Source: a virus (lineage: Duplodnaviria > Heunggongvirae > Uroviricota > Caudoviricetes). Taken from it: a DNA stretch of 41,923 bases. The DNA is taken from IMG/VR virus record IMGVR_UViG_2630968543_000002; one strand, given 5' to 3'. Each line of letters starts with the position of its first letter. Position 1 is the first letter of the stretch. Made by a program: the position numbers and the translations under genes. This document shows, piece after piece, positions 2,796-38,400 of the stretch. The notes below the pieces were generated by a model. It was not told the DNA's origin and did no database searches. It was given only the letters and a program-made list of their open reading frames with translations.

Positions 2796-3818
2796 TTACT
2801 CGAATTCTGTACGCATATCGTTAAGCGTCATCATGAATTTTTGGTGATATTCATCACCGAGCTTTTCAGCCATGGTGTTAATTTCATTTTCAGCGCGCTT
2901 GAACATCGTTTTTGCATCTTCAGCAGATGGATCCAGGCTATTAAGTATCGCGATGATATATTCTCGAGCTTCTTCTCGTTCTGAATCTGAAATTGGCGAT
3001 AGGTGTTGACGCTCATCGTCAACTACGGAATATTCACCAGTGATAACAGCTGCGTTATCTTGGCTAAGTCCAGCTTCAGCGCGCTCATCCATAACAACAG
3101 CCTTCTGCATCTCAATAGAAACAGGAAGATATTTGAACAGTCGGCGAATTACTGTTTTTTTAGCCATCTCATCGAAGTGATCAACCCATGGGCCACTGCT
3201 ACCGGCTTTGCTCAGTGCACGAACTTTCTCAACGTCTGCCCGGCTCATAACTTCAAATTGGACTCCACCATCTTTCAGTCGTGCAACGGCGTAAACGTGC
3301 GTTAATTCTCCGCGGTCACCTGTTTCGCAAGGTAAATGCTCGAGCGTTTCTTCCAGGCCGTATGAGTAGCTGAATTTGTCGTTTGTATGTACGGTACGAG
3401 CCGAGATACTCAGGATCTGCCCAGAGCGGCGGGCAAGGTCAATCATTCCGCGATAGCCGATAATCAGCTGTGCTTCTGTAGATACGGTTTCCCATCTTCC
3501 ATTTACTTTCTGGCGTTTGTCGAACGGTATCAGGTAAGCGTGTCCAAGAGCTCCACCTGGTTCAAGACCCAATTGGGCACATTGCATAATTGCCCCCAGG
3601 AAGCTGGCTTGGTCGCATGATGCAAGTTTTGGAACCTTTCGGATCTCTGTGGTTGCTATGCGCGCCAGACGGTCTGCTGTCATGTGCTTTGGAAGTGCCA
3701 AAGCCATCTGGGCTTTTATTTTTGGGTCTGCCAGAAGTCCGGCCAGAGTTGTTGGTTTCTCATTATGATGTGCAACTTGGTTACCGGTAGCCGCTGCCTT
3801 AAGTGCATTGATAGACAT
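2796..3818 (-). CDS. recT: RecT-family single-strand annealing recombinase
   Basis: 340-aa ORF with strong RecT signature (RIATTEIRKVP...LGLEPG...GHAYLIPF...QLIIGYRGMIDLARRSGQI...THVYAVARLKDGG...FEVM...GPW...EMAKKT.IRRLFKYLPVSIE). Confidence 0.9.
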   Translation of the reverse strand: MSINALKAAATGNQVAHHNEKPTTLAGLLADPKIKAQMALALPKHMTADRLARIATTEIRKVPKLASCDQASFLGAIMQCAQLGLEPGGALGHAYLIPFDKRQKVNGRWETVSTEAQLIIGYRGMIDLARRSGQILSISARTVHTNDKFSYSYGLEETLEHLPCETGDRGELTHVYAVARLKDGGVQFEVMSRADVEKVRALSKAGSSGPWVDHFDEMAKKTVIRRLFKYLPVSIEMQKAVVMDERAEAGLSQDNAAVITGEYSVVDDERQHLSPISDSEREEAREYIIAILNSLDPSAEDAKTMFKRAENEINTMAEKLGDEYHQKFMMTLNDMRTEFE

Positions 3819-3827
3819 TTTTTCTCC

Positions 3828-4727
3828 TTACTTCATTCTGAAGACGCGTTGTGTCGTTGTTGTTTTGAATTTTTCGAATAACTCAGGGTGTACTGACTGG
3901 AATAGCTTCTGGTCGAATCTGTTGCTGATCTGAGATTTCCATGTGCAGAGCGGCTTTCCGTCCAGGGTCAGGACTGAGTGCTCTTGCATGTACATCTTCA
4001 GCTTCTCTTCTGATATAGCTATTTCTTCTTCCAGTGATTTTCTGCGTGACTTCATGTCTCGTAGATCGTTGAATAGTGCGAGTGCCTTTCCGTCAGCCTC
4101 GATACTTGTCCCGGCATCTTTCTCAAACATCAGCGATACATCGCTTACGCTGGTAGCTTCCGGCGGGTTAAGATTTTTCACTCGGTCCCAGAAAGCGATT
4201 TCTTTTTCTAAGATCGCCTGGATAGTTTCTTCATCACGCTCAACCCGATAGATTCGGAAGTCGTCGCCACCGATAAGCACACCGAAAACGCATACCTGTT
4301 TGTTTGTAACCATCAACCCGTGCATGGCCTGGGCCGTGTAATGCACAGGAATTGCATCTGTCTGGATTTCTCCCCATTCTTTGGCTTTGAACGGACTAAC
4401 TGTTTTGATCTCAATGTTCTCGCCTGACGCTGCTTCTGCATCGATCTCAGCTGCAATAAAATCGTAATCACGGTGGATATAGCGGTTTCCGCGATGAACG
4501 ATTTCCATCCCTGTTTCCTCAGAAAGCAGGTCTATTACGTATGGCTCCATACGCTGGCCACGCGTGAAAACTTTCTGCTTGCTTGGGTCTACTGGTTTGA
4601 CACGTGGCTGGACTTTATCCAGATAAACCTCAAGCGGGGTGCGCCATGGGCTAATTCCAAGAATCCCTGCAACATCGCTTCCTCCGATGTATTTTGTTCT
4701 ATCCATGATTCCAGCGTTCCGCATCAT
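3828..4727 (-). CDS. YqaJ-like phage exonuclease (lambda Exo-type PD-(D/E)XK), partner of RecT
   Basis: 299-aa ORF directly upstream of recT; N-terminal GGSDVAGILG motif typical of YqaJ recombination exonucleases; ATGA overlap with the preceding gene. Confidence 0.8.
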   Translation of the reverse strand: MMRNAGIMDRTKYIGGSDVAGILGISPWRTPLEVYLDKVQPRVKPVDPSKQKVFTRGQRMEPYVIDLLSEETGMEIVHRGNRYIHRDYDFIAAEIDAEAASGENIEIKTVSPFKAKEWGEIQTDAIPVHYTAQAMHGLMVTNKQVCVFGVLIGGDDFRIYRVERDEETIQAILEKEIAFWDRVKNLNPPEATSVSDVSLMFEKDAGTSIEADGKALALFNDLRDMKSRRKSLEEEIAISEEKLKMYMQEHSVLTLDGKPLCTWKSQISNRFDQKLFQSVHPELFEKFKTTTTQRVFRMK

Positions 4728-5184: not shown

Positions 5185-5274
5185 TTACCTCGGCTTGTTA
5201 CCGTTGAGGTAATGGTTATGCGTATTTGGTTTGATGTCAATAGATATGAGTTAAAAAAATTACCCATAAGGTAA
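5185..5274. promoter_or_regulatory. Left operator/promoter region (OL-like): two perfect TTACC-N5-GGTAA palindromes (5198..5212, 5260..5274) plus a TTACC half-site at 5185..5189
   Basis: Direct reading; a minus-strand TTGACA -35 hexamer lies between the two sites (plus 5235..5240, as tgtcaa). Confidence 0.65.
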
Positions 5275-5331: not shown

Positions 5332-5916
5332 TTATTGTTTATTTTTTTCGTTCTGGTTGATGACAAATTCAATGTAACTTTCGATCTTTGCTTTCTCGGT
5401 TTCGGGTAACAATGCGTAGCGCGAGCGGTCATAGTTGATGGTCGCAGGGTCGTGCGGGTGAATCAGTAATTCATAGCCGTGACGCCCGAATGCGGATGCA
5501 ACATTCTCCAGGGTGGAAATGGAAACGCTGACCTCATTGTTTAACAGGCGGCTGATTGTTACCTGGGCGACGCCGGATGCGCGGTGAAGTTTTCCCTGTG
5601 TTGAAAGGTCGCGGCTTTCGCTCATCCAGCGTTCCAGGTTGTGAGCCGCCAGCTGACCAATGTCGCTTGGGCCGACAGGCTGAAAACCTTCCTGAGAAAG
5701 CGAGCGATCGATATCAAGCCAGTTACGGGGTTTATTGGCGGCAGCTTCAATTTTTCGCGCAACCTGGTCGCCGATAACCTTCTTGCCAAGAGCCCAGCGG
5801 TTTACCAGATTTGCCTGAGTTCCAAGTTTTTCTGCCATCCGCGTCTGAACACCATTGAATTCACGGTCGATCAAGTCGTTGAGATTTTGCCTGCGGACGT
5901 CCTGGATACTTTTCAT
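5332..5916 (-). CDS. Prophage repressor with two tandem HTH domains (CI analogue); no S24 peptidase domain evident
   Basis: 194-aa ORF with two HTH-like segments (QTRMAEKLGTQANLVNRWALGKK and GVAQVTISRLLNNEVSVSISTLENVA); divergent from the Cro-like gene across an operator-rich spacer. Confidence 0.75.
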   Translation of the reverse strand: MKSIQDVRRQNLNDLIDREFNGVQTRMAEKLGTQANLVNRWALGKKVIGDQVARKIEAAANKPRNWLDIDRSLSQEGFQPVGPSDIGQLAAHNLERWMSESRDLSTQGKLHRASGVAQVTISRLLNNEVSVSISTLENVASAFGRHGYELLIHPHDPATINYDRSRYALLPETEKAKIESYIEFVINQNEKNKQ

Positions 5917-5971: not shown

Positions 5972-6034
5972 TTACCCAACAGGTAAATGCACCTCATAGG
6001 TAACTATCCTTGATTTTTGTTACCTTATGGGTGA
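5972..6034. promoter_or_regulatory. Right operator region (OR-like) between repressor and cro: one perfect site (5972..5986) and two degenerate sites (5989..6003 GCACC-N5-GGTAA; 6020..6034 TTACC-N5-GGTGA)
   Basis: Direct reading; the third site lies between a TTGATT -35 (6011..6016) and a GAATAT -10 (6034..6039) of the putative rightward promoter. Confidence 0.65.
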
Positions 6035-6070: not shown

Positions 6071-6301
6071 ATGAGCGATAACGGACATTTCGATTTCAAA
6101 AAGCACTGGCTTGCACTTACTCCGGATGAGCGTGAAGCCTTCGCACAGGAAGCCGGAACGACGAGTCACTATATCCAGACTCACTTAACAGGTAAGCGCA
6201 AAATGCCAGGTAAGGTATTGATGAATGGGCTTTTTAAAGCCTGTAAAACAAGACAATGGCTGCGCTCAAAAGCAGAACTGGCATACTTCTTCTACTCATG
6301 A
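6071..6301 (+). CDS. Cro-like small DNA-binding protein
   Basis: 76-aa ORF divergent from the repressor, followed by a terminator; putative HTH segment EAFAQEAGTTSHYIQTHLTGKRKMP. Confidence 0.65.
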   Translation: MSDNGHFDFKKHWLALTPDEREAFAQEAGTTSHYIQTHLTGKRKMPGKVLMNGLFKACKTRQWLRSKAELAYFFYS

Positions 6302-6667: not shown

Positions 6668-7483
6668 ATGAGCAGACATGCAACAGATTGGGCCTGGGAG
6701 ACAGATCCAGGTAGCTCGTCATTAAAGCTCATACTGCTCTCGATGGCTGACAGAGCCGATGAATATAACCTCTGCTACCCCAGCATAGAACGCCTCGTTA
6801 AAGACACTTGCCTGAATAAAAAAACCGTGCAGGCCGGGCTTATATCGCTCATGAAGATGGGGCTTATTTCAGATACCGGAGAGAGAAAGGGTGCGACGAA
6901 AAGAGTGCGGGTTTTCTCTCTTAATATAACCAAAAACGGGAACATTAAAGGCAACCGGGAAGGGGGTAATGAACCCGAAAACGGTAATGTTACCGAAAAC
7001 GGGAATATACCCAAAAACGGGATGTTGAATGATCCCAAAAACGGGATGTTGAATGATCCCAAAAACGGGATCCAGAACCAGTCATATAACCAGTCATTTA
7101 ACCAAGAGAGGGAGAGCAGGACAAAAAGCGGGGATTCTGTGCCTCATGACCCCGGCGCAAACAACGCCGTGATGAATAACTTTGTTCCTCCTGGTGGGCC
7201 AGGGCAATTAGGCAAATTTGTCATGCATGAACAATGGCAGCCATCAGATGACTTTCTTCGGAAAAGCTCATTGCAGGGGATCTACCTGGACAGCCTGCCA
7301 ACGGCACAGGAGCTTGCAGAGTTCAGAATTTACTGGATGGCTGAGGGTAAGGCATACCATCAGGCACAGTGGGAGCAGAAGCTGGCAAGGCGGCTGCAGA
7401 TTAGCAGACAGAAGCAATCAACATTACCTGATAACAACGTTCCGCACTGGAACAGCCCTGAAGCGTGGGAGGATTTCTTGTGA
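6668..7483 (+). CDS. Replication initiator (lambda O analogue) with DnaT-like C-terminal domain; the gene contains the putative origin iterons
   Basis: 271-aa ORF; N-terminal winged-helix-like region (LKLILLSMADRADEYNLCYPSIERLVKDT), central NG-rich repeats encoded by the iterons, C-terminal FRIYWMAEGKAYHQAQWEQKLARRLQ; GGAG Shine-Dalgarno. Confidence 0.75.
   Translation: MSRHATDWAWETDPGSSSLKLILLSMADRADEYNLCYPSIERLVKDTCLNKKTVQAGLISLMKMGLISDTGERKGATKRVRVFSLNITKNGNIKGNREGGNEPENGNVTENGNIPKNGMLNDPKNGMLNDPKNGIQNQSYNQSFNQERESRTKSGDSVPHDPGANNAVMNNFVPPGGPGQLGKFVMHEQWQPSDDFLRKSSLQGIYLDSLPTAQELAEFRIYWMAEGKAYHQAQWEQKLARRLQISRQKQSTLPDNNVPHWNSPEAWEDFL
6929..7072. repeat. Origin-like iteron array: six copies of CC(A/G)AAAACGG(G/T)A, the last three as 24-bp tandem repeats, followed by AACCAGTCAT direct repeats
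   Basis: Direct reading (copies at about 6930, 6975, 6993, 7011, 7035, 7059). Confidence 0.7.
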
Positions 7484-8265
7484 ACAACGTTTTTACCGCG
7501 ATACAAAACCGTGACGGAGAAGCCCTTTCTCGCATGTCAGGTTATGAGCATCAGTACGTCAACAATGACAATGTGGTGAACATGTCAGCAGAGAGGCTTG
7601 TTGATGCCCTTTTCAAACAGCTGAAACAACTGTTTCCGGCGGCAGTAGTAACCAACCTGAAGACGCCAGAGCAGGAAGTTGCTGCAAAACAGCAGTGGAT
7701 TGCTGCGTTTGCCGAAGGGGGGATCCGAACCCGTGAACAGGTTTCTGCTGGTATGCGCCACGCCCGCGCCAGTGAATCTCCGTTCTGGCCGTCGCCAGGG
7801 CAATTCATCAAGTGGTGTAAAGACAGCAAGATGGTTCTTGGCGTCACCATTGACGATGTGATGGCGGAGTTTCACCGGTACAGCAAGGAAAAAAGTTTAT
7901 ATCCTGGTGGTCCCGAAAGATTCCCGTGGCGACATCCGGTTATGTACTGGGTCGTATGTGATACCCGCCGTGCAATGTATCAGCGCCAGCTTAGCGAGAT
8001 TGAGGTTGAGAAACACGCGCGCAGGCTGCTCGATGATTGGGCGAAAAAGGTAGCTTCCGGACAGCAGATACCCGATCCGGTGATCAGCATACAGGCAAAG
8101 CCAGAACCCATGAGTACGCCTCCGGACACAGGGAGAGACGTTTACCATCCACCAGGGCGAAGTTTCGGGTGCATGCCTAACGCCGCCACCCTTGGGGGAA
8201 TAACACCGGCGCAGTGGCTGATGGAGGAATACAGGCGGGGAAAGGCGGCAGGATTTATCAAGTAA
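7480..8265 (+). CDS. Lambda P-like replication protein (helicase loader)
   Basis: Matches lambda P as recalled (REQVSAGMRHARASESPFWPSPGQFIKWC versus lambda MEQVNAGMRVARRQNRPFLPSPGQFVAWC); GTG start at 7480 with GGGAGG 7 nt upstream, GTGA overlap with the O-like stop. Confidence 0.85.
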   Translation: MNNVFTAIQNRDGEALSRMSGYEHQYVNNDNVVNMSAERLVDALFKQLKQLFPAAVVTNLKTPEQEVAAKQQWIAAFAEGGIRTREQVSAGMRHARASESPFWPSPGQFIKWCKDSKMVLGVTIDDVMAEFHRYSKEKSLYPGGPERFPWRHPVMYWVVCDTRRAMYQRQLSEIEVEKHARRLLDDWAKKVASGQQIPDPVISIQAKPEPMSTPPDTGRDVYHPPGRSFGCMPNAATLGGITPAQWLMEEYRRGKAAGFIK

Positions 8266-8270
8266 TACCA

Positions 8271-8290
8271 GCGCGATAGCGCATTTTTTT
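8271..8290 (+). terminator. Weak terminator-like element after the P-like gene
   Basis: 4-bp GC stem (GCGC-GATA-GCGC) followed by seven T. Confidence 0.3.
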
Positions 8291-8302
8291 ACGTCTCGAT
8301 AA

Positions 8303-8317
8303 TTACCTGTGAGGTAA
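8303..8317. promoter_or_regulatory. Perfect operator palindrome TTACC-TGTGA-GGTAA, immediately preceded by GATAAT (-10-like)
   Basis: Direct reading. Confidence 0.55.
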
Positions 8318-8364
8318 TAAAATATTCTAAACTCTATTGATTTCGTGTCTTATGTGGTTTTTAA

Positions 8365-8379
8365 TTACCTCAGGGGTAA
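8365..8379. promoter_or_regulatory. Perfect operator palindrome TTACC-TCAGG-GGTAA, 4 nt upstream of the 8383 start codon; TATGTGGTT motif 5 bp upstream (8351..8359)
   Basis: Direct reading. Confidence 0.55.
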
Positions 8380-8382
8380 ATT

Positions 8383-8730
8383 ATGAGAAAACAGATACAG
8401 GCTCTTGGTCGACTCAAAACAGGCCAGATGAACAAAACAGAATCTGCGTATTGCCAGCACCTTGAGATGCGTAAACGTGCAGGAGAAATCGTCTGGTATC
8501 GATTTGAGGGTATCAAGCTGCGGTTAGCTGACAACACGTTCTATACGCCCGATTTTGCTGTGATGCTCGCCACCGGCGAGATGGAGCTGCACGAAGTGAA
8601 AGGGGGATTCTGGACCGACGACGCCAGGGTGAAAACCAAAGTCGCCGCAGATCAGTATCCGTTCCGAATCATCGGGGTAACGGTTAAACCAAAGAAAGCA
8701 GGTGGTGGCTGGAACATCGAAGAGTTCTGA
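8383..8730 (+). CDS. PD-(D/E)XK nuclease-like protein (resembles DUF1064)
   Basis: 115-aa ORF with putative PD...E.K motif (YTPDFAVM...ELHEVKGG). Confidence 0.6.
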   Translation: MRKQIQALGRLKTGQMNKTESAYCQHLEMRKRAGEIVWYRFEGIKLRLADNTFYTPDFAVMLATGEMELHEVKGGFWTDDARVKTKVAADQYPFRIIGVTVKPKKAGGGWNIEEF

Positions 8731-8791
8731 ATCGACGATCTTTTTAGTTATCAATGTAATCAATAAGTTATGTGGATAAGCGAGGGTAAAG

Positions 8792-9424
8792 ATGGAAAGT
8801 AATATCAAAGGGTTAGTTGCCGCCGGGCATGAGATGGCTTCGGAACTGAAAGCAGAATGTGGTGCCGTTGATATGCGCAGTGTGGCAAAGCTGCTCAGCG
8901 ATTTGGCAACGCAACTGGAAGTGCAACTGGTGCGTGCTAATGTGCTGGCCGAAGACCAGCAGAAAGCGATTGAGTCAATTAAGCAGGCTGATTCGGCTGT
9001 TAAGTTGGCACACGAGAAGTTTTCGGCGCTGGCGGCGGAGAATGCGGGGCTGAAACATGCAATGGCTGTAACTCTTGAGCATGTGTCGGTCACGGATGCA
9101 GGGCAGGCCGGAGTTGCTGCAATGATTATCAACGATGCCCTGCACCACAGCGAAACTCCAGCCACCGATGCTTTTCTGGCTGAAATTCGTGCGGAGGCTC
9201 GCAACGAGGGGATTAACTATACCGCAAGCCGTCTTGCTGCTGCTTTCAACCACGGATTTATCAATAAGTCTTTACGTGAAGTTTTCGACGTTACACGCAT
9301 GATTCTGTCAGCGAAAGAAGAGTTGGCTAATGAACCGCACCCGATTGATGGCCTGTCCGGTGAATATGCGGAGAAATCCCTTGAAGAATGGGCGGAACAG
9401 ATTCGCAAAGGAGCTGACAAGTGA
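8792..9424 (+). CDS. Coiled-coil protein, paralogue A (possibly Ead/Ea22-like; unverified)
   Basis: 210-aa ORF; C-terminal about 90 aa (TPATDAFLAEIRAEARNEGINYTA...EEWAEQIRKGADK) paralogous to the C-terminus of 9840..10640; GAGGG Shine-Dalgarno. Confidence 0.6.
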   Translation: MESNIKGLVAAGHEMASELKAECGAVDMRSVAKLLSDLATQLEVQLVRANVLAEDQQKAIESIKQADSAVKLAHEKFSALAAENAGLKHAMAVTLEHVSVTDAGQAGVAAMIINDALHHSETPATDAFLAEIRAEARNEGINYTASRLAAAFNHGFINKSLREVFDVTRMILSAKEELANEPHPIDGLSGEYAEKSLEEWAEQIRKGADK

Positions 9425-12153: not shown

Positions 12154-12427
12154 CCTGCAACTTGCCGTCAAAGGTGAATACTTCGATGCCATGATTCGCG
12201 GAGAGAAAACGGAAGAGTATCGCCTGTGTAATGACTACTGGAATAAGCGCCTCGTTAACCGTAAGTATGACCGCCTGATTATCACAAAGGGATATCCGAA
12301 GCGCGAAGACTTCAGTCGCAGAATTGACGTCCCGTATAACGGATATGAAATAAAAACAATCACACATCCACACTTCGGTGATAAACCGGTAAAGGTGTTC
12401 GCGATAAAGGTAAATATTGATGGCTAA
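12146..12427 (+). CDS. ASCH/PUA-like domain protein (resembles DUF3850)
   Basis: GTG start with AGGAGG 6 nt upstream; N-terminus LQLAVKGEYFDAMIRGEKTEEYR matches the ASCH-type pattern. Confidence 0.55.
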   Translation: MANLQLAVKGEYFDAMIRGEKTEEYRLCNDYWNKRLVNRKYDRLIITKGYPKREDFSRRIDVPYNGYEIKTITHPHFGDKPVKVFAIKVNIDG

Positions 12428-12758
12428 ATCAGCAGCAGAGCGCAAAGCCGCTCAGAGAGCCAGACAAGCTGCATCTGGTGTGCGTAAGCTGGAGATTGTG
12501 CTTGATGCTCAGGAAATTGAAATGCTTGAGCGTAACTGTGCCGCGCGTCGCCCCGGGCGTGCGCCTTACGAATTTGGTGAGTATATAGCGTTACTGATCC
12601 GCCAAGATGATGCACGCGTGCACGGGCGTATAAAATCGATCAGCAGAAAACGTTGCGGTAAGTGCGGCGAGAGAGTTCCTGTGAATTCATGCCCGTGTAA
12701 TGGTGACTCGCAATGCTGGGTGACTAAAGGCTGGCATGAAACGAAATTAATAGTGTGA
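12420..12758 (+). CDS. Hypothetical protein with C-terminal Cys cluster (CGKCGERVPVNSCPCNGDSQC); last gene before the late operon, possible late-gene regulator (inference)
   Basis: 112-aa ORF; its stop codon lies inside the GTGACATGTCAC palindrome. Confidence 0.5.
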   Translation: MAKSAAERKAAQRARQAASGVRKLEIVLDAQEIEMLERNCAARRPGRAPYEFGEYIALLIRQDDARVHGRIKSISRKRCGKCGERVPVNSCPCNGDSQCWVTKGWHETKLIV

Positions 12759-12766: not shown

Positions 12767-12807
12767 GAGTAGATTATGCATGATGAATTTGATGGGTTTT
12801 GAATACT

Positions 12808-12844: not shown

Positions 12845-12877
12845 TTACCACAACGGTAACAATTACCAGGGTGGTTA
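12845..12877. promoter_or_regulatory. Late-operon control region: perfect site TTACC-ACAAC-GGTAA (12845..12859) preceded by TACTAT, plus degenerate site TTACC-AGGGT-GGTTA (12863..12877) ending 2 nt before the terS start
   Basis: Direct reading. Confidence 0.55.
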
Positions 12878-12879
12878 TA

Positions 12880-13473
12880 ATGCCTGCTGAACCTAAAACC
12901 TATAAACGCAAATCAACGCAATTTAAGCCGCTCACAGCAATGCAGGAGGCTTATTGCCAGTCATACATCAAAACGCCTGAAAACCAGACTCAGGCTGCGA
13001 TTAACGCAGGATTCTCCCCAAATACAGCGGCAGTTAAAGCCAGTGTTATGATGCGCGATGAACGCATTCAAAAACGGATTGCCGAGTTGATGGAGGAGCG
13101 CAACAAACGAATGCGCGTCAGTGCTGATTACGTTCTCATGCGCCTGGTGGAGATCGACCAGATGGACGTGATCGATATCCTCAACGACGATGGGAGCCTT
13201 AAACCAATCCGTGAGTGGCCGAAAATCTGGCGCACTACGCTTAGCGGCTTTGATCTGTCATCGACCATCATGAACATGAACGAGGACTCGATAGAGACAA
13301 TCCTCAAAAAAATTAAATGGCCTGACAAGGTGAAGAACCTAGAACTGATTGGTAAGCACGTCGACGTCAACGCATTCAAAGAACGCCTGGATGTTAATGT
13401 GAATGTGACAATTGCTGATCGCATAGCGGCAGCCAGGAAGCGACTCAAAGAACGTCAGGATGGTAATCAGTGA
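12880..13473 (+). CDS. terS: Terminase small subunit
   Basis: Position directly upstream of and overlapping the large terminase (GTGA); basic HTH-like N-terminus; ORF opens at 12799 but a terminator and operators occupy 12808..12877, so ATG 12880 is preferred. Confidence 0.65.
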   Translation: MPAEPKTYKRKSTQFKPLTAMQEAYCQSYIKTPENQTQAAINAGFSPNTAAVKASVMMRDERIQKRIAELMEERNKRMRVSADYVLMRLVEIDQMDVIDILNDDGSLKPIREWPKIWRTTLSGFDLSSTIMNMNEDSIETILKKIKWPDKVKNLELIGKHVDVNAFKERLDVNVNVTIADRIAAARKRLKERQDGNQ

Positions 13474-16067: not shown

Positions 16068-16157
16068 TAATTCGCGCATTAAATGTCAACTGTCTACGAT
16101 AAATAAATCATATGTGGTTAAATTGGTAATAATTTAATTGCGTACGGAGTCATTGAT

Positions 16158-33119: not shown

Positions 33120-33812
33120 TCAGAAAAATCCTGCTTTATCGTTGATGTACTCCGCGTGGGTCTCGATATCACGCAGGCATTTGCTCACACCGACGATGTA
33201 GCAGAACATGGTGGTCAGCTCCGCCGCCGCGCCCGATACGTCGTGCCCGTCTTCCTGTAACTGGTTCAGCAGATTCATCAGCAGTGAGTTCTCCGTCAGG
33301 CCGAGAACACCAGACGGCGAGTGAATCAGACTGCGGTAGCCGGGCTTCAGTGGGGCGCTGTAGGTTTTGTTCTCTATCTTCATTGCCTGCATCACTGCTG
33401 ACGCCGTGGCGTTGGCAACCTGGTCGGCAACCATCTTTATGCGTTCTTCCTGCGGGAGCGAGTTTTTAATGTAGCTTCCGGTGCGGCGGATCTGAGGAAG
33501 AACCTCACCTGTAACCCATTCAAGAAATCTGAATGCTCTCGTTCCCTCTGTCATTGCCTCTTTGCAACGCAGAATAAGGATGTAGAGACCTGATTCTGAA
33601 ACGATGGATAGTTCTTGTATTCCACCAGGGGTCTGTATTGAATGCAGCCCCTTTTTGTTCCAGCCTTTTTTATCAAGTTTTCTCGCTTGTGTAACATCAA
33701 TATTCAAAGCATTGCACACATCTTTGGTGACAAACCAAGGTTCTCCGTCAATCATGAACATACGGATCTGGCAGGATGACTCAAAGGAAAAGATGGAAGG
33801 TTTGGTATTCAT
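33120..33812 (-). CDS. Bro-N domain protein / putative antirepressor (Ant-like)
   Basis: N-terminal Bro-N signature (IFSFESSCQIRMFMIDGEPWFVTKDVCNALNI); AAGGTGA 5 nt upstream of ATG 33812 (ORF opens at 33857 with TTG); C-terminal domain paralogous to gene 34959..35216. Confidence 0.75.
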   Translation of the reverse strand: MNTKPSIFSFESSCQIRMFMIDGEPWFVTKDVCNALNIDVTQARKLDKKGWNKKGLHSIQTPGGIQELSIVSESGLYILILRCKEAMTEGTRAFRFLEWVTGEVLPQIRRTGSYIKNSLPQEERIKMVADQVANATASAVMQAMKIENKTYSAPLKPGYRSLIHSPSGVLGLTENSLLMNLLNQLQEDGHDVSGAAAELTTMFCYIVGVSKCLRDIETHAEYINDKAGFF

Positions 33813-33966
33813 GGCGATCACCTTTGTAGTTAGGTTAATCACCACCGCTGAGACCAATCAGATGGTGGTGAACTGTGCAGAGTTGGTCTTACCGGCTACA
33901 AAGGAACCCGGCGCACCTTTCGGTGCCCCCACACAGCCCACCATAGAATAGGTGCGCTTTACACAT

Positions 33967-34207: not shown

Positions 34208-34936
34208 ATGGAAGTTTTCTGGATAGTTGTTGGTGTGGTTGCGGTGATTATTTACGTTATCAACCAGAACAAGACTAAGATCTCTGATCGTACGGTCGTT
34301 AATCAGAACAAAACGATAAAGACCGAAGATGGGGAGATAACGATTAATCGTACACAGGTGATAGAGCACACATCTACTCAGTTTCAAAAAACTGGAGGTA
34401 ACGCTCCTGATATTTCCGTACCTCCTGCTTATGATAGTGCGGTAATCCAGACATATTATAAACAGCAGGAGTTAGCAAAAGAGAGGCAACTGATTCAGCC
34501 AAAGCCGTTTACAGCTGAGCTTCCACCTGGAGTGTCAACGCGTCCGGCATATCATGGAAGATTCCCTGGTGATGACATATCGTCTCAGTCATTTAAAAAA
34601 GCACCTCAGGCAGTATCAGAGCCAGCAAGAATATCTTCTGTATCGCCGCCAAAAGAAGAATCAGCTAACAGAGTTTCAAGCGGTAGCAAGCAGTGCTTGC
34701 GATGCAGAATAAACCTTCCATATGAAAAATTCAGGAAATCGTCAAAAAATCCGGATGGATTGACTAAGTGGTGTGCAAGGTGTCTCGATGGCCCAAAGAA
34801 TACACGTCATATGAAGTGGTGCCCAATTTGTAATGTCCGCAGAAAACGAACCAGCTTTTACCCTAATAATCAAAATGCGGACGGCTTAATGGCATGGTGC
34901 AAAACGTGCTGGGACGAGCACAAAGCGAAACGATAG
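34208..34936 (+). CDS. Membrane-anchored protein with two C-terminal zinc-ribbon-like repeats (unknown function)
   Basis: N-terminal hydrophobic helix (EVFWIVVGVVAVIIYVI); two repeats of C-x2-C-x16-17-DGL-x3-WC-x2-C; GAGG Shine-Dalgarno. Confidence 0.65.
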   Translation: MEVFWIVVGVVAVIIYVINQNKTKISDRTVVNQNKTIKTEDGEITINRTQVIEHTSTQFQKTGGNAPDISVPPAYDSAVIQTYYKQQELAKERQLIQPKPFTAELPPGVSTRPAYHGRFPGDDISSQSFKKAPQAVSEPARISSVSPPKEESANRVSSGSKQCLRCRINLPYEKFRKSSKNPDGLTKWCARCLDGPKNTRHMKWCPICNVRRKRTSFYPNNQNADGLMAWCKTCWDEHKAKR

Positions 34937-34958: not shown

Positions 34959-35216
34959 TTACCTGGTTTGTTTTCGTAATTGTTCGGCACAATAGTCGAG
35001 ATGTGTTTGCAGATCCTGCATAGACATCTGTGAGCTGGTGACGTAGTTAATCAGTGCAGTCAGTTCGGCAAGTGGGCCATCGACATTAAATCCATCCTTA
35101 TTGAGATCCCGGAGTAATTTCATCAAGTGCGATCCCTCCACCAGTGACCTGACGCCTCCCGGCGTGTGAATCCTTTCGGTAAATCCGTCTTCCAGTGGAT
35201 AGTGATACTGCTGCAT
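34959..35216 (-). CDS. Hypothetical protein (85 aa), paralogue of the C-terminal domain of the Bro-N protein
   Basis: ATG at 35216 with GGAG upstream; TERIHTPGGVRSLVEGSHLMKLLRDLNKDGFNVDGPLAELT aligns with RSLIHSPSGVLGLTENSLLMNLLNQLQEDGHDVSGAAAELT. Confidence 0.55.
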   Translation of the reverse strand: MQQYHYPLEDGFTERIHTPGGVRSLVEGSHLMKLLRDLNKDGFNVDGPLAELTALINYVTSSQMSMQDLQTHLDYCAEQLRKQTR

Positions 35217-35292
35217 CTTATCTTCTCCATGCAATAACTGTATATTTATACAGTAGCAAATAATTTGTTTGCTATCCAGCACGTTTTGCAAA

Positions 35293-35307
35293 TTACCTGA
35301 AAGGTAA
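35293..35307. promoter_or_regulatory. Perfect operator palindrome ATTACC-TGAAA-GGTAAT between divergent gene 34959..35216 and the tailspike; TATGTGGTT motif and a GGTAAT half-site follow at 35339..35358
   Basis: Direct reading. Confidence 0.55.
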
Positions 35308-35411
35308 TATCTATTAGTATTCACAGTATTTCTATCCATATGTGGTTTTTCAGGTAATAGAATAACCAGATATGCGGCGCAACGGGTGCTGCGACTATCT
35401 GGAGATTTAAC

Positions 35412-38400
35412 ATGACGGTCTCAACCGAAGTTGACCACAACGAATACACAGGTAACGGCGTTACGACATCGTTTCCGTATACTTTTCGAATTTTCAGAAA
35501 ATCCGACCTGGTTGTTCAGGTGTCTGACCTGAACGGGAACGTAACAGAATTGGTTCTGGATACCGGTTATACGGTAACTGGGGCGGGCACTTATAGTGGC
35601 GGTTCTGTGGTTCTTCCGTCGCCGCTTGCTACTGGATGGAGAATTACGATAGATCGTGTGCTTGATGTAGTGCAGGAGACAGACCTTCGCAATCAGGGAA
35701 AGTTTTTCCCCGAAGTGCATGAAGATGCCTTTGACTACCTGACGATGCTGATCCAGCAATGTTTTGGATGGTTCAGACGTGCATTGATGAAACCATCTTT
35801 GCTTGCAAAATATTACGATGCAAAGCAAAACAGAATTTCTAACCTTGCAGATCCATCACTTGAACAGGACGCTGTAAATAATCGCTCAATGCGTAATTAT
35901 GTCGATGCTGCAATCGCCGGGGTTGTTGGTGGTTTTGGTTGGTTTATTCAGTATGGTTCTGGGGCAGTATACCGAACGTTCCAGGATAAAATGCGTGATG
36001 CTATTAGCCCCAAAGATTTTGGAGCTGTTGGTGATGGTATAAATGACGATTCTACTGCAATAAGCGCGTGCCTTGAAGCCTCATCTCCAGGTTATAAAAT
36101 TGACGGATTAGGGCTTACTTTTAAAGTATCAACTCTTCCGGATGTCAGCCGATTTAAAAATGCTCGTTTTTTATTTGAGAGAATACCGGGTCAGCCTCTT
36201 TTTTATGCTTCTGAAGATTTTATCCAGGGAGAGTTATTTAAAATTACAGATACACCGTGGTACAACGCCTGGACGCAGGATAAAACGTTTGTATATGACA
36301 ATGTCATCTATGCGCCTTTTATGGCTGGAGACCGCCATGGTGTAAATAACCTCCATGTTGCATGGGTTCGCTCAGGAGATGACGGGAAGACCTGGACAAC
36401 GCCGGAATGGCTTACAGATTTACATGAAAACTATCCCACAGTTAACTATCACTGCATGAGTATGGGGGTTGTCAGAAATCGCCTTTTTGCTGTAATTGAG
36501 ACGCGGACCGTGAGCGGAAATAAACTGCAGGTTGCAGAGTTGTGGGATCGTCCAATGAGTCGCAGCCTTCGCGTTTATGGTGGTATAACGAAAGCAGCAA
36601 ATCAGCAAGTCGCTTATATTCGCATTACTGATCACGGATTATTTGCTGGTGATTTTGTCAACTTCTCAAACTCTGGTGTTACAGGTGTTACCGGGAATAT
36701 GACGGTGACTACTGTTATTGATAAAAATACTTTTACAGTTACGACGCAAAATACTCAGGTTGTGGATCAGAATAACGAGGGTAGATACTGGAGTTTTGGT
36801 ACATCATTTCACTCGTCACCATGGAGAAAAACCAGTCTTGGAACTATTCCTTCTTTTGTTGACGGAAGCACTCCTGTTACTGAGATTCACAGTTTTGCGA
36901 CGATTAGCGATAACAGTTTTGCTGTTGGCTACCATAATGGTGATATTGGTCCACGCGAGCTTGGGATACTCTATTTCTCTGATGCTTTCGGTTCTCCTGG
37001 TAGCTTTGTTCGCAGACGCATACCTGCAGAATATGAGGCGAATGCATCTGAGCCATGTGTAAAATATTATGATGGCATTCTGTATCTGACGACCAGGGGG
37101 ACATTAAGTACTCAACCCGGTAGTTCATTGCACAGAAGCTCTGATTTAGGTGCATCATGGAATTCTCTTCGCTTCCCAAATAATGTTCATCACTCAAACC
37201 TTCCTTTTGCCAAAGTTGGCGATGAGCTGATTATTTTTGGCAGTGAGCGCGCATTTGGTGAGTGGGAAGGAGGAGAACCTGATAACCGTTATGCAGGAAA
37301 TTATCCAAGAACATTTATGACCAGAGTTAACGTCAATGAGTGGAGTCTGGATAATGTAGAGTGGGTTAATGTTACTGATCAGATTTATCAGGGCGGAATA
37401 GTTAACTCTGCGGTTGGTGTTGGTTCAGTTTGTATCAAAGACAACTGGCTGTACTACATTTTCGGTGGGGAAGACTTTCTAAACCCATGGAGCATAGGGG
37501 ATAACAACAGAAAATATCCTTATGTTCACGATGGTCACCCGGCTGATTTGTATTGTTTCAGGGTGAAAATTAAACAGGAAGAATTTGTTTCAAGGGATTT
37601 TGTCTACGGAGCCACTCCTAACAGAACGCTTCCTACTTTTATGTCGACGTCCGGCGTGAGGACGGTTCCTGTACCCGTTGATTTCACAGATGATGTTGCC
37701 GTCCAGTCACTGACTGTCCATGCAGGTACATCAGGACAAGTTCGCGCGGAAGTCAAACTGGAGGGCAATTACGCCATTATTGCGAAGAAAGTACCGTCTG
37801 ATGATGTTACCGCTCAGAGATTAATCGTTAGCGGCGGTGAAACAACGTCTTCAGCAGATGGTGCAATGATAACGTTGCATGGTTCCGGAAGCAGTACTCC
37901 ACGTCGCGCGGTATATAACGCACTCGAACATCTTTTTGAGAACGGAGATGTTAAACCTTATCTTGATAATGTAAATGCTCTTGGTGGTCCGGGAAACAGG
38001 TTCTCGACAGTTTATCTTGGCTCCAATCCTGTGGTTACCAGTGACGGAACATTAAAGACAGAGCCGGTCTCTCCTGACGAAGCATTGCTGGATGCCTGGG
38101 GTGACGTCAGGTATATCGCTTATAAATGGCTGAACGCTGTCGCTATAAAGGGAGAAGAAGGGGCGAGGATACATCATGGTGTAATCGCGCAGCAACTTCG
38201 TGATGTTCTTATTTCTCACGGACTCATGGAAGAAGAAAGCACAACATGCCGCTATGCCTTTCTTTGCTATGACGATTATCCCGCAGTATATGATGACGTC
38301 ATTACTGGCCAAAGGGAAATTCCGCTGACTGATAATGACGGGAGCATCATTGTTGATGAGGATGATAATCCAGTGATGGTAATGGAAGACATCATTGAGC

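Follow-up and report, generated by a model that had tools for sequence, protein, structure and literature searches.

A DUF1064 protein with a predicted PD-(D/E)XK nuclease fold behind paired predicted operators in a phiV10/epsilon15-like prophage

Introduction

What does a small nuclease-like protein do in the early region of a prophage, and by what is its gene controlled, if its promoter carries two copies of what looks like a repressor operator? The question is raised by a reading frame in the 41,923-nucleotide stretch of DNA analysed here (the window), which a first-pass annotation, made from the letters alone, had singled out as a possible PD-(D/E)XK nuclease gene. The gene, its family, the assignment of this family to a nuclease superfamily (2005) and the operator motif are already known from public records, the gene is an ordinary one, and the value of the locus as a discovery is small. 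What we add is a tentative functional assignment, in which the product is a resolvase of the T7-endonuclease-I-like type with RuvC and RusA as its analogues, and the description of a predicted operator-promoter module that is conserved among related phages and behind which either RuvC or DUF1064 is found.

Results and Discussion

The prophage and its relatives

Judged by homology and gene order, the window represents a Uetakevirus prophage of the phiV10/epsilon15-like kind. A region of 601 bp that includes the DUF1064 gene has matches in 24 phage records, with identities of 94.5% to phiV10, 96-97% to vB_EcoP_ZX5 and PAS61, and about 83% to the remoter Salmonella phages SPN1S and SPC32H and the Enterobacter phage BUCT554; among 5426 complete E. 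coli genomes, 529 carry the same region, with identity up to 98.7%. Uetakevirus is the classification of the annotated relatives that we inspected (phiV10, SPN1S, BUCT554 and epsilon15). The features of the window that are relevant here are collected in Table 1. The neighbours of the DUF1064 gene are replication and eae/ead genes, an arrangement that is also phiV10's, and the orthologs of PhiV10p45 (phiV10, ZX5, SPN1S, SPC32H, BUCT554) represent the same gene in the same place, known from annotation only. This annotation is uneven: the ortholog in the phiV10 record is labelled 'DUF1064 domain-containing protein', while elsewhere it is called a hypothetical protein, a 'putative restriction endonuclease' (SPC32H) or, evidently wrongly, a 'helicase subunit of the DNA excision repair complex'. 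The results described below give grounds to correct both the restriction and the helicase label.

Table 1. Positions in the window of the DUF1064 gene, its control elements and the associated phage genes.
Feature	Coordinates	Strand	Remarks
RecT	2796..3818	-	Pfam RecT 4.3e-57
YqaJ-type exonuclease	3828..4727	-	Pfam YqaJ 2.7e-23
Operator pair, leftward early promoter	5198..5274		62 bp apart; same geometry as the DUF1064 promoter
Prophage repressor (Rep)	5332..5916	-	PDB 5D50 match E 1.9e-41, residues 1-189; Pfam HTH_3
cro-like gene	6071..6301
O-like initiator	6668..7483		HTH_36 and DnaT domains
lambda-P-like loader	7465..8265
Terminator-like hairpin	8271..8290	+	GCGC-GATA-GCGC with A and T7 following; stop codon of the P-like gene 6 nt upstream
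Operator O1, ATTACCTGTGAGGTAAT	8302..8318		perfect 7-bp arms; exact match to the 17-bp consensus
Alternative -10-like TAAAAT	8318..8323	+	with TCGATA at 8296-8301, spacer 16; O1 in the spacer
-35-like TTGATT	8337..8342	+	within CTATTGA, invariant in six phages; predicted function
TATGTGGTT motif	8351..8359	+	inside the 17 nt that separate TTGATT from TTTAAT
-10-like TTTAAT	8360..8365	+	17 nt after TTGATT; overlaps the left edge of O2
Operator O2, ATTACCTCAGGGGTAAA	8364..8380		perfect 5-bp arms; over the -10 edge, predicted start site and ribosome-binding site
Shine-Dalgarno-like AGGGG	8372..8376	+	6 nt before ATG, inside O2
DUF1064 gene	8383..8730	+	followed by eae/ead-like genes; ortholog of PhiV10p45
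gp49-like regulator	12417..12758
Bro-N / Ant-like antirepressor gene	33120..33857	-	PHROG 130 'anti-repressor Ant' 3.8e-51; Pfam Bro-N

Family, fold and catalytic residues

The reading frame begins with ATG and encodes 115 residues, among which P56-D57 and E71-V-K73 form the PD...E.K motif reported in the first-pass annotation; the motif is present as described, and its D57, E71 and K73 are conserved in 101 homologs. The nearest proteins are 97-99% identical to the product, and close homologs carry both a precomputed PF06356 match and the NCBI name 'DUF1064 domain-containing protein'. The product itself matches Pfam DUF1064 (PF06356) over residues 18-93 with 26.1 bits against a gathering cutoff of 24.7 (E 1.2e-5), and PHROG 190 over residues 1-114 (E 5.1e-43), a family whose label, 'Holliday junction resolvase', is an annotation. 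There was no match to Pfam RusA, none to Pfam Phage_endo_I at E ≤0.01, and no matching model in NCBIfam. The membership in a DUF1064 nuclease family that had been suggested is thus borne out by Pfam, by PHROG 190 and by the profile match to T7 endonuclease I described below; the profile searches, for which a placement in a non-nuclease family had been named as the contrary result, had the opposite outcome and led to nuclease families. The family is a large one: when 1.84 billion cluster representatives were scanned with HMMER, 4657 relatives of the 115-aa protein were recovered, and a separate homolog search with the DUF1064 protein returned 6138 matches. Although homologs are detectable by the thousands, a literature search for a biochemically tested DUF1064 protein retrieved predictions and annotation alone. 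SPP1 G44P, a characterised resolvase that we considered as a possible DUF1064 protein, is RusA-like according to the paper that describes it, and for this reason it is unusable as a characterised member of the family.

Conservation was assessed in an alignment of 101 homologs, chosen as representatives at about 50% identity. E20, D57 and G75 are invariant in this alignment, and the conservation of E71 and K73 amounts to 90% or more, such that E20, D57, E71 and K73 satisfy the catalytic pattern E ... D ... E/D-x-K of the PD-(D/E)XK superfamily. An AlphaFold model of the monomer, calculated with the same alignment as input, has a pLDDT of 92.4 and shows the order helix, strands, helix, strand; according to this model the product has a PD-(D/E)XK fold, in which a helix is followed by three strands, a second helix and a further strand. 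The placement of DUF1064 in this superfamily, and its similarity to T7 endonuclease I, were proposed by Feder and Bujnicki in 2005 (PMC1189080) and were published again in 2012 (PMC3424549).

The relationship with T7 endonuclease I (gene 3; PDB 1M0D, 1FZR, 2PFJ), which is likewise a small phage PD-(D/E)XK enzyme and resolves junctions, is best seen at the level of the family profile. When PDB sequences were compared with the DUF1064 profile, the top match was T7 endonuclease I (1M0D), the best solved relative but at an E-value of only 0.014, and entries of this enzyme made up 4 of the 7 matches; a single-sequence search of the PDB sequences with the 115-aa protein gave nothing even at E 10. 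In the profile alignment YTPDF and E-x-KG-x-W coincide between the two families, and the T7 catalytic residues, which we take to be D55, E65 and K67 (T7 numbering was obtained via an 11-residue offset between chains 1M0D and 2PFJ), presumably correspond to D57, E71 and K73 of the DUF1064 protein. T7 endonuclease I is a domain-swapped homodimer whose active sites are composite. Structural matches found with Foldseek among the predicted viral structures of BFVD include proteins named 'Endonuclease I-like' and 'Endonuclease I'. The archaeal Hjc resolvases (1GEF, 2WCW, 1HH1, 1OB8) are only 10-14% identical to the DUF1064 protein, with no match at the sequence level, and in comparison with Hjc the DUF1064 model contains additional strands after helix 1 and before the strand of D57. 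Since the link with T7 endonuclease I is marginal by E-value, we treat DUF1064 as a family that appears related to this enzyme, not as a member of its family. On these grounds the gene product would be a small metal-dependent PD-(D/E)XK endonuclease, distantly related to T7 endonuclease I.

A pair of predicted operators at a fixed distance

The palindrome TTACC-N5-GGTAA occurs at 8303-8317 and 8365-8379, 62 bp apart from start to start, and the downstream copy reaches to 4 nt before the start codon (ATG, 8383). Spacing and position agree with the first-pass annotation, which had also called both palindromes perfect: this holds for O1, with its 7-bp arms, while O2 is perfect over 5-bp arms only. 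With respect to the 17-mer ATTACC-N5-GGTAAT, O2 deviates at one outer position, and with respect to the window consensus (aTTACCt-N3-aGGTAAt, 17 bp) at one inner position in addition. The motif is highly enriched: allowing at most one mismatch, there are 14 TTACC-N5-GGTAA sites in the window against 0.73 expected, a number that was reached in 0 of 100 shuffles, and the exact 17-mer occurs 5 times against 0.00 expected. The sites that could be placed fall in intergenic or promoter-proximal DNA. The interval from the repressor to the cro-like gene contains two of them, at 5972 and 6020, a pair flanks the leftward early promoter, and others precede late genes (terminase, 12845/12863; head, 16053; tailspike, 35293).

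In the window and five relatives (six phages in all) the arms of O1 and O2 and the 62-bp spacing are invariant and the central bases variable, which is the pattern expected of half-site contacts. O2 is found exactly 62 bp from O1 in phiV10, BUCT554, SPN1S, epsilon15 and a Klebsiella prophage; the spacing of the leftward pair is 62 bp in the window and four relatives, and 63 bp in the Klebsiella prophage. The GenBank record of epsilon15 has the palindrome marked as 'protein_bind: repressor' at seven places, one of which is the O1 equivalent (35906-35922), whereas the O2 equivalent is without annotation. Epsilon15 and the window share the palindrome ATTACC-N5-GGTAAT as well as its distribution over the genome, and by this likeness the palindromes at 8303 and 8365 are of one sequence family with the repressor sites annotated in epsilon15.

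The predicted promoter between and beneath the operators

In all six phages the same order of elements precedes the gene: a hairpin with a run of seven T, O1, 18 nt, CTATTGA (containing the -35-like hexamer), 21 nt, O2 and the ATG. The stem and T-run of the hairpin are invariant while its loop varies; in the phiV10 record it is labelled a putative rho-independent terminator, and the fold of 8262-8297 has an energy of -8.7 kcal/mol (z -2.7). Because the stem is only 4 bp long, termination here is probably partial.

Two candidate promoters can be recognized downstream. The pair TTGATT-17-TTTAAT, which would give a leader of about 10 nt, has a -10-like hexamer that lacks an A at position 2 and is therefore weak and not listed by the promoter scan, so that its assignment rests on conservation and on the likeness to the leftward promoter; in the Klebsiella relative, TATAAA stands in the position of TTTAAT. 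On the minus strand, the leftward early promoter shows O1, 18 nt, TTGACA, 21 nt and the ATTACC of its O2, and the geometry of the two promoters is identical on opposite strands. The alternative pair, TCGATA-16-TAAAAT, was listed by the scan with 9 of 12 matches; AAAATAT is invariant in the six phages but the TCGATA that would serve as -35 is unconserved, and we regard this pair as the weaker candidate. With either of them the core promoter would be covered by an occupied operator. In the relatives the Shine-Dalgarno position reads GAGG, GGGG or AAGG.

It can also be seen that the purine-rich centre and right arm of O2 constitute the predicted Shine-Dalgarno sequence of the gene.

The repressor and other possible ligands of the palindromes

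The presumed trans-acting factor for O1 and O2 is the product of the prophage repressor gene, Rep, which matches the repressor of SPC32H (PDB 5D50) over nearly its full length. According to a secondary account (PMC9638917), SPC32H Rep binds palindromic sites as a tetramer whose DNA-binding pairs combine members of different dimers; a single tetramer is enough to repress, and Rep is taken apart by an antirepressor that is itself a tetramer. The window encodes counterparts of both components of this Rep/Ant switch (PDB 5D50, 5D4Z), the Ant-like product being the presumed inducer that releases Rep, and a Rep tetramer with two DNA-binding pairs would fit the paired operators. The distance of 62 bp is close to six helical turns, which would place O1 and O2 on the same face of the DNA. 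A Rep loop between the two sites is what we infer from this geometry, and a loop of 62 bp would be a tight one. With operator pairs at a fixed 62 bp, the 'trans' binding model proposed for the SPC32H repressor tetramer should be simple to examine in vivo.

Repressors with operators spread over the genome are exemplified by phage P1 C1 and by mycobacteriophage L5 gp71 with its 'stoperators'. As in these systems, one repressor in the window would serve many sites at most transcription units, beyond a single immunity region; what differs is that the sites of the window are symmetric palindromes, often paired at 62 bp and located at promoters, and are not placed in transcribed regions as elongation blocks.

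The palindromes could instead be bound mainly, or also, by another regulator, such as the Cro-like or the gp49-like product, with the late sites being activating and TATGTGGTT being the site of a second factor. In lambdoid phages Cro and CI share operators, and the same may be true here; the palindromes before the terminase, head and tailspike genes and a recurrent CATATGTGGTT element beside the operators would also be accounted for, and the 'repressor' label in epsilon15 is an annotation behind which we traced no experiment. We nevertheless consider this reading unlikely, since the sites around the rep/cro region and the leftward promoter are in classical operator positions, O2 covers the -10/start region, where a bound protein would repress and not activate, and overexpression of the repressor in the close relative ZX5 reduced the endolysin and holin transcripts by more than 99.9% (PMC9782041, a study that contains no operator mapping). 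The operator reading of the first-pass annotation is therefore one that we share: the epsilon15 repressor annotation, the sites flanking rep and cro, and the homology of Rep to the SPC32H protein all point to predicted Rep operators.

A slot shared with RuvC, and a position shared with RusA

One comparison that bears on the function of the gene is with epsilon15. Between the replication genes and the Eae-like gene, where the window has DUF1064, epsilon15 has a RuvC-type Holliday junction resolvase (35987..36451; Pfam 25.7 bits against a cutoff of 22.2). The flanks are homologous, with 74% identity upstream (window 8271-8385 and epsilon15 35875-35989) and 85% downstream (window 8735-8807 and epsilon15 36451-36523), but the gene bodies between them are unrelated; RuvC is absent from the window and DUF1064 is absent from epsilon15. 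The upstream flank includes the whole control region, so that the same terminator-operator-promoter-operator cassette stands before RuvC in epsilon15 and before DUF1064 in the window. Among the 34 phage records that contain both flanks, as identified by a joined-flank search with the occupant judged by span, the slot holds DUF1064 in 25 and RuvC in 9 (epsilon15 and 8 others), and is empty in none. Such a natural exchange of RuvC for DUF1064 behind one promoter cassette would lend itself to a clean genetic test of function.

A second positional relationship connects DUF1064 with RusA. In a lambdoid prophage of Pseudomonas aeruginosa, the gene for a DUF1064 protein 81% identical to that of the window overlaps the end of ybcO, and in DLP12 the gene that follows ybcO is rusA. 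The folds of RuvC, RusA and Rap are unrelated to PD-(D/E)XK, and the relationship of DUF1064 to RuvC, RusA and lambda Rap is one of positional analogy, without homology; a shared slot shows interchangeability, not identical chemistry. Conserved gene arrangement has been taken to suggest equivalent functions for Rap and RusA (PMC3485210). A 2025 paper on a staphylococcal phage labels a DUF1064 protein, encoded shortly downstream of a helicase loader gene, as a RusA-like resolvase.

The window also encodes RecT and a YqaJ-type exonuclease, and a partner that cuts junctions is therefore to be expected. Taken together with the family assignment, these observations suggest that the DUF1064 enzyme is most likely a phage Holliday-junction or branched-DNA resolving enzyme. 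Among the roles originally listed for the nuclease, it is that of recombination factor which gains evidence from this analysis, while host takeover is left as a minority possibility and a role in defence or anti-defence receives none.

Host takeover would mean that after induction the nuclease nicks or breaks host DNA, feeding nucleotides and recombinogenic ends to the phage, and that it is repressed because it is toxic; a task of this kind has been proposed for T4 endonuclease II and as a second role of T7 gene 3. Exactly this was speculated for DUF1064 by Feder and Bujnicki (2005, PMC1189080), T7 endonuclease I is said to contribute to the cleavage of host DNA (PMC3485210), and a toxic product would be in keeping with a dedicated pair of operators that covers the -10 region and the ribosome-binding site. 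The same operators are found, however, at most transcription units of the phage, and for this reason direct repression is not special to DUF1064. We know of no degradation of the host chromosome by temperate phages of the epsilon15/phiV10 type, and to our knowledge enzymes of the RuvC type are not host-DNA degraders. Further against host takeover, DUF1064 is replaced in place by RuvC and, in another phage type, occupies a position like that of RusA, which is a junction-specific resolvase (PMC3485210). We favour the resolving role over host-DNA degradation because of the RuvC exchange, the RusA-equivalent position and the presence of RecT and the exonuclease, and consider host takeover as the main role to be quite improbable; since T7 endonuclease I is credited with both roles, however, an additional host-DNA role is conceivable for DUF1064.

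The annotation of the SPC32H ortholog as 'putative restriction endonuclease' would favour a defence, restriction or anti-defence nuclease, and this we regard as very unlikely. There is no PADLOC match at E ≤0.1 and no linked modification or sensor partner, the methylase is about 6 kb off in the opposite operon and none is adjacent, epsilon15 also has methyltransferase genes with RuvC in the place of DUF1064, and the 115-aa protein appears from its model to be without a specificity domain; moreover, if the palindromes are repressor operators, the gene would be silent in the lysogen and could not protect the host. Least credible of all is a selfish free-standing homing endonuclease that spreads by the cutting of empty alleles and would in this way account for conserved flanks around unrelated genes, as an empty slot is found in 0 of the 34 records, the other occupant is a bona fide RuvC resolvase and not a homing enzyme, DUF1064 is also found in the nin-like region of an unrelated prophage, where it overlaps its operon neighbour, and its regulated promoter is shared with RuvC.

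A model for the probable resolvase and its control

Our best explanation, which we consider probable although by no means certain, is that the DUF1064 protein is a junction- or branch-resolving endonuclease that acts as a partner of RecT and the exonuclease, and that its gene is repressed by Rep at both operators. The gene would head a second rightward early operon, consisting of DUF1064 followed by the eae/ead-like genes and set apart by the weak terminator after the P-like gene. In the lysogen, one repressor tetramer of the SPC32H type would bind O1 and O2 together and shut the promoter; upon induction, the antirepressor would release Rep from both sites. The enzyme would then cut the junctions and branches generated by the RecT/exonuclease pair and by recombination-dependent replication, making the resulting concatemers packageable. 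In one respect the comparison with T7 does not extend to control: T7 is virulent and its gene 3 is without repressor control, while the DUF1064 gene is a prophage gene behind predicted operators.

More tentatively, the same observations can be generalized. DUF1064 could represent a third, T7-endonuclease-I-like type of resolvase, interchangeable with RuvC and RusA in the temperate phages of enterobacteria and pseudomonads, of which the Uetakevirus copy would be locked by a single looping tetramer over 62 bp, with the promoter-proximal operator doubling as ribosome-binding site; this is a proposal that we find somewhat more likely to fail than to hold in all its parts. In a bolder variant, reasoned by analogy with T7 gene 3, the dedicated lock would owe its existence to an additional attack by the induced enzyme on host DNA or replication forks.

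The TATGTGGTT motif

The TATGTGGTT motif that had been pointed out in the promoter region is present, and its placement is non-random but its number is not: ATGTGGTT has 3 copies in the window where 1.77 are expected, and as many were obtained in 29 of 100 shuffles, a count within chance. As candidate identities we considered a DnaA box, an extended -10 element and an IHF site, none of which it fits. All three TATGTGGTT copies, the other two being at 16111 and 35339, lie 48-60 nt downstream of an operator, and a TGTGGTT core recurs downstream of epsilon15 operators, including those of the two orthologous promoters. A further copy with one mismatch, at 5223, has the orientation opposite to that of its promoter, and the Klebsiella relative carries TTTATGGTT in place of TATGTGGTT.

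Operator sites and transcription units

The operator palindrome that the prophage repressor presumably recognizes (TTACC-N5-GGTAA) occurs at 14 sites that are dispersed over the entire phage rather than confined to one region (see table), standing ahead of the leftward and DUF1064 operons, of the rep/cro region, and of the genes for replication, terminase, head and tailspike, among others. Where operators are paired, they are spaced at 62, 48, 62, 18 and 93 bp. Since these predicted operators stand before most transcription units, it seems likely that most units are directly under the control of a single repressor, without a late-gene cascade.

At 12845-12882, the most closely spaced pair (18 bp) lies directly upstream of an ATG at 12880, while the listed ORF for the terminase small subunit starts at a TTG at 12799; the ATG may be the true start of this protein. 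The layout is similar to that of the DUF1064 locus, in which the second operator adjoins the start codon. As for the 115-aa DUF1064 product itself, its orthologs in several phage records (OQ921333.1 (PAS61), PP445227.1 (EC.W1-9), KC911856/7 (SPC32H/N)) carry the label "helicase subunit of the DNA excision repair complex" in some cases and "putative restriction endonuclease" in others; no support for either label was found in the present analysis.

A second element, (C)ATATGTGGTT, recurs downstream of operators both in the window and, as its TGTGGTT core, in epsilon15. In the window, an operator half-site lies 5 nt beyond each of the three copies; the count of the element in the window shows no excess over chance.

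Features of the window and of epsilon15 (record L004)
Feature	Position	Strand	Remarks
Operator palindrome	5198, 5260, 5972, 6020, 6357, 8303, 8365, 12845, 12863, 16053, 33032, 34080, 34173, 35293		14 sites
(C)ATATGTGGTT element	8351-8359, 16111-16119, 35339-35347		48-60 nt downstream of operator at three promoters
TGTGGTT core	L004 2992, 24755, 35957		50-60 nt downstream of three operators
Tandem repeat, O-like gene			period 18, 3.1 copies
Tandem repeat, O-like gene			period 24, 2.6 copies, perfect
Tandem repeat, O-like gene			period 12, 2.4 copies
Antirepressor gene, Bro-N/Ant-like	33120..33857	-	full-length
242-aa protein ORF	34208..34936	+	downstream of operators 34080 and 34173, 93 bp apart
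Antirepressor-like ORF	34959..35339	-	shorter; PHROG 450, 15539, 1760

Replication-related sequences

Three adjoining tandem-repeat arrays at 6965-7104, within the gene of the O-like replication initiator (6668..7483), encode a repeated NG..PKNG peptide. By analogy with lambda O, whose iterons are inside the initiator gene, these arrays look like origin iterons. Between the DUF1064 gene and the downstream Eae-like gene, TGTGGATAA at 8771-8779 is the reverse complement of TTATCCACA, the DnaA-box consensus; this is probably a chance occurrence, because epsilon15 carries TACGGGTAA at the same position.

Operator-linked ORF and antirepressor genes

The N-terminus of the 242-aa protein, MEVFWIVVGVVAVIIYV, is hydrophobic, and the protein weakly matches families of endonuclease VII and of Lar-like zinc-ribbon proteins (PHROG 6762; phrog_1035, 4e-12). 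The shorter antirepressor-like ORF matches antirepressor families in its C-terminal part only, and is perhaps a remnant, or else a module that has been duplicated.
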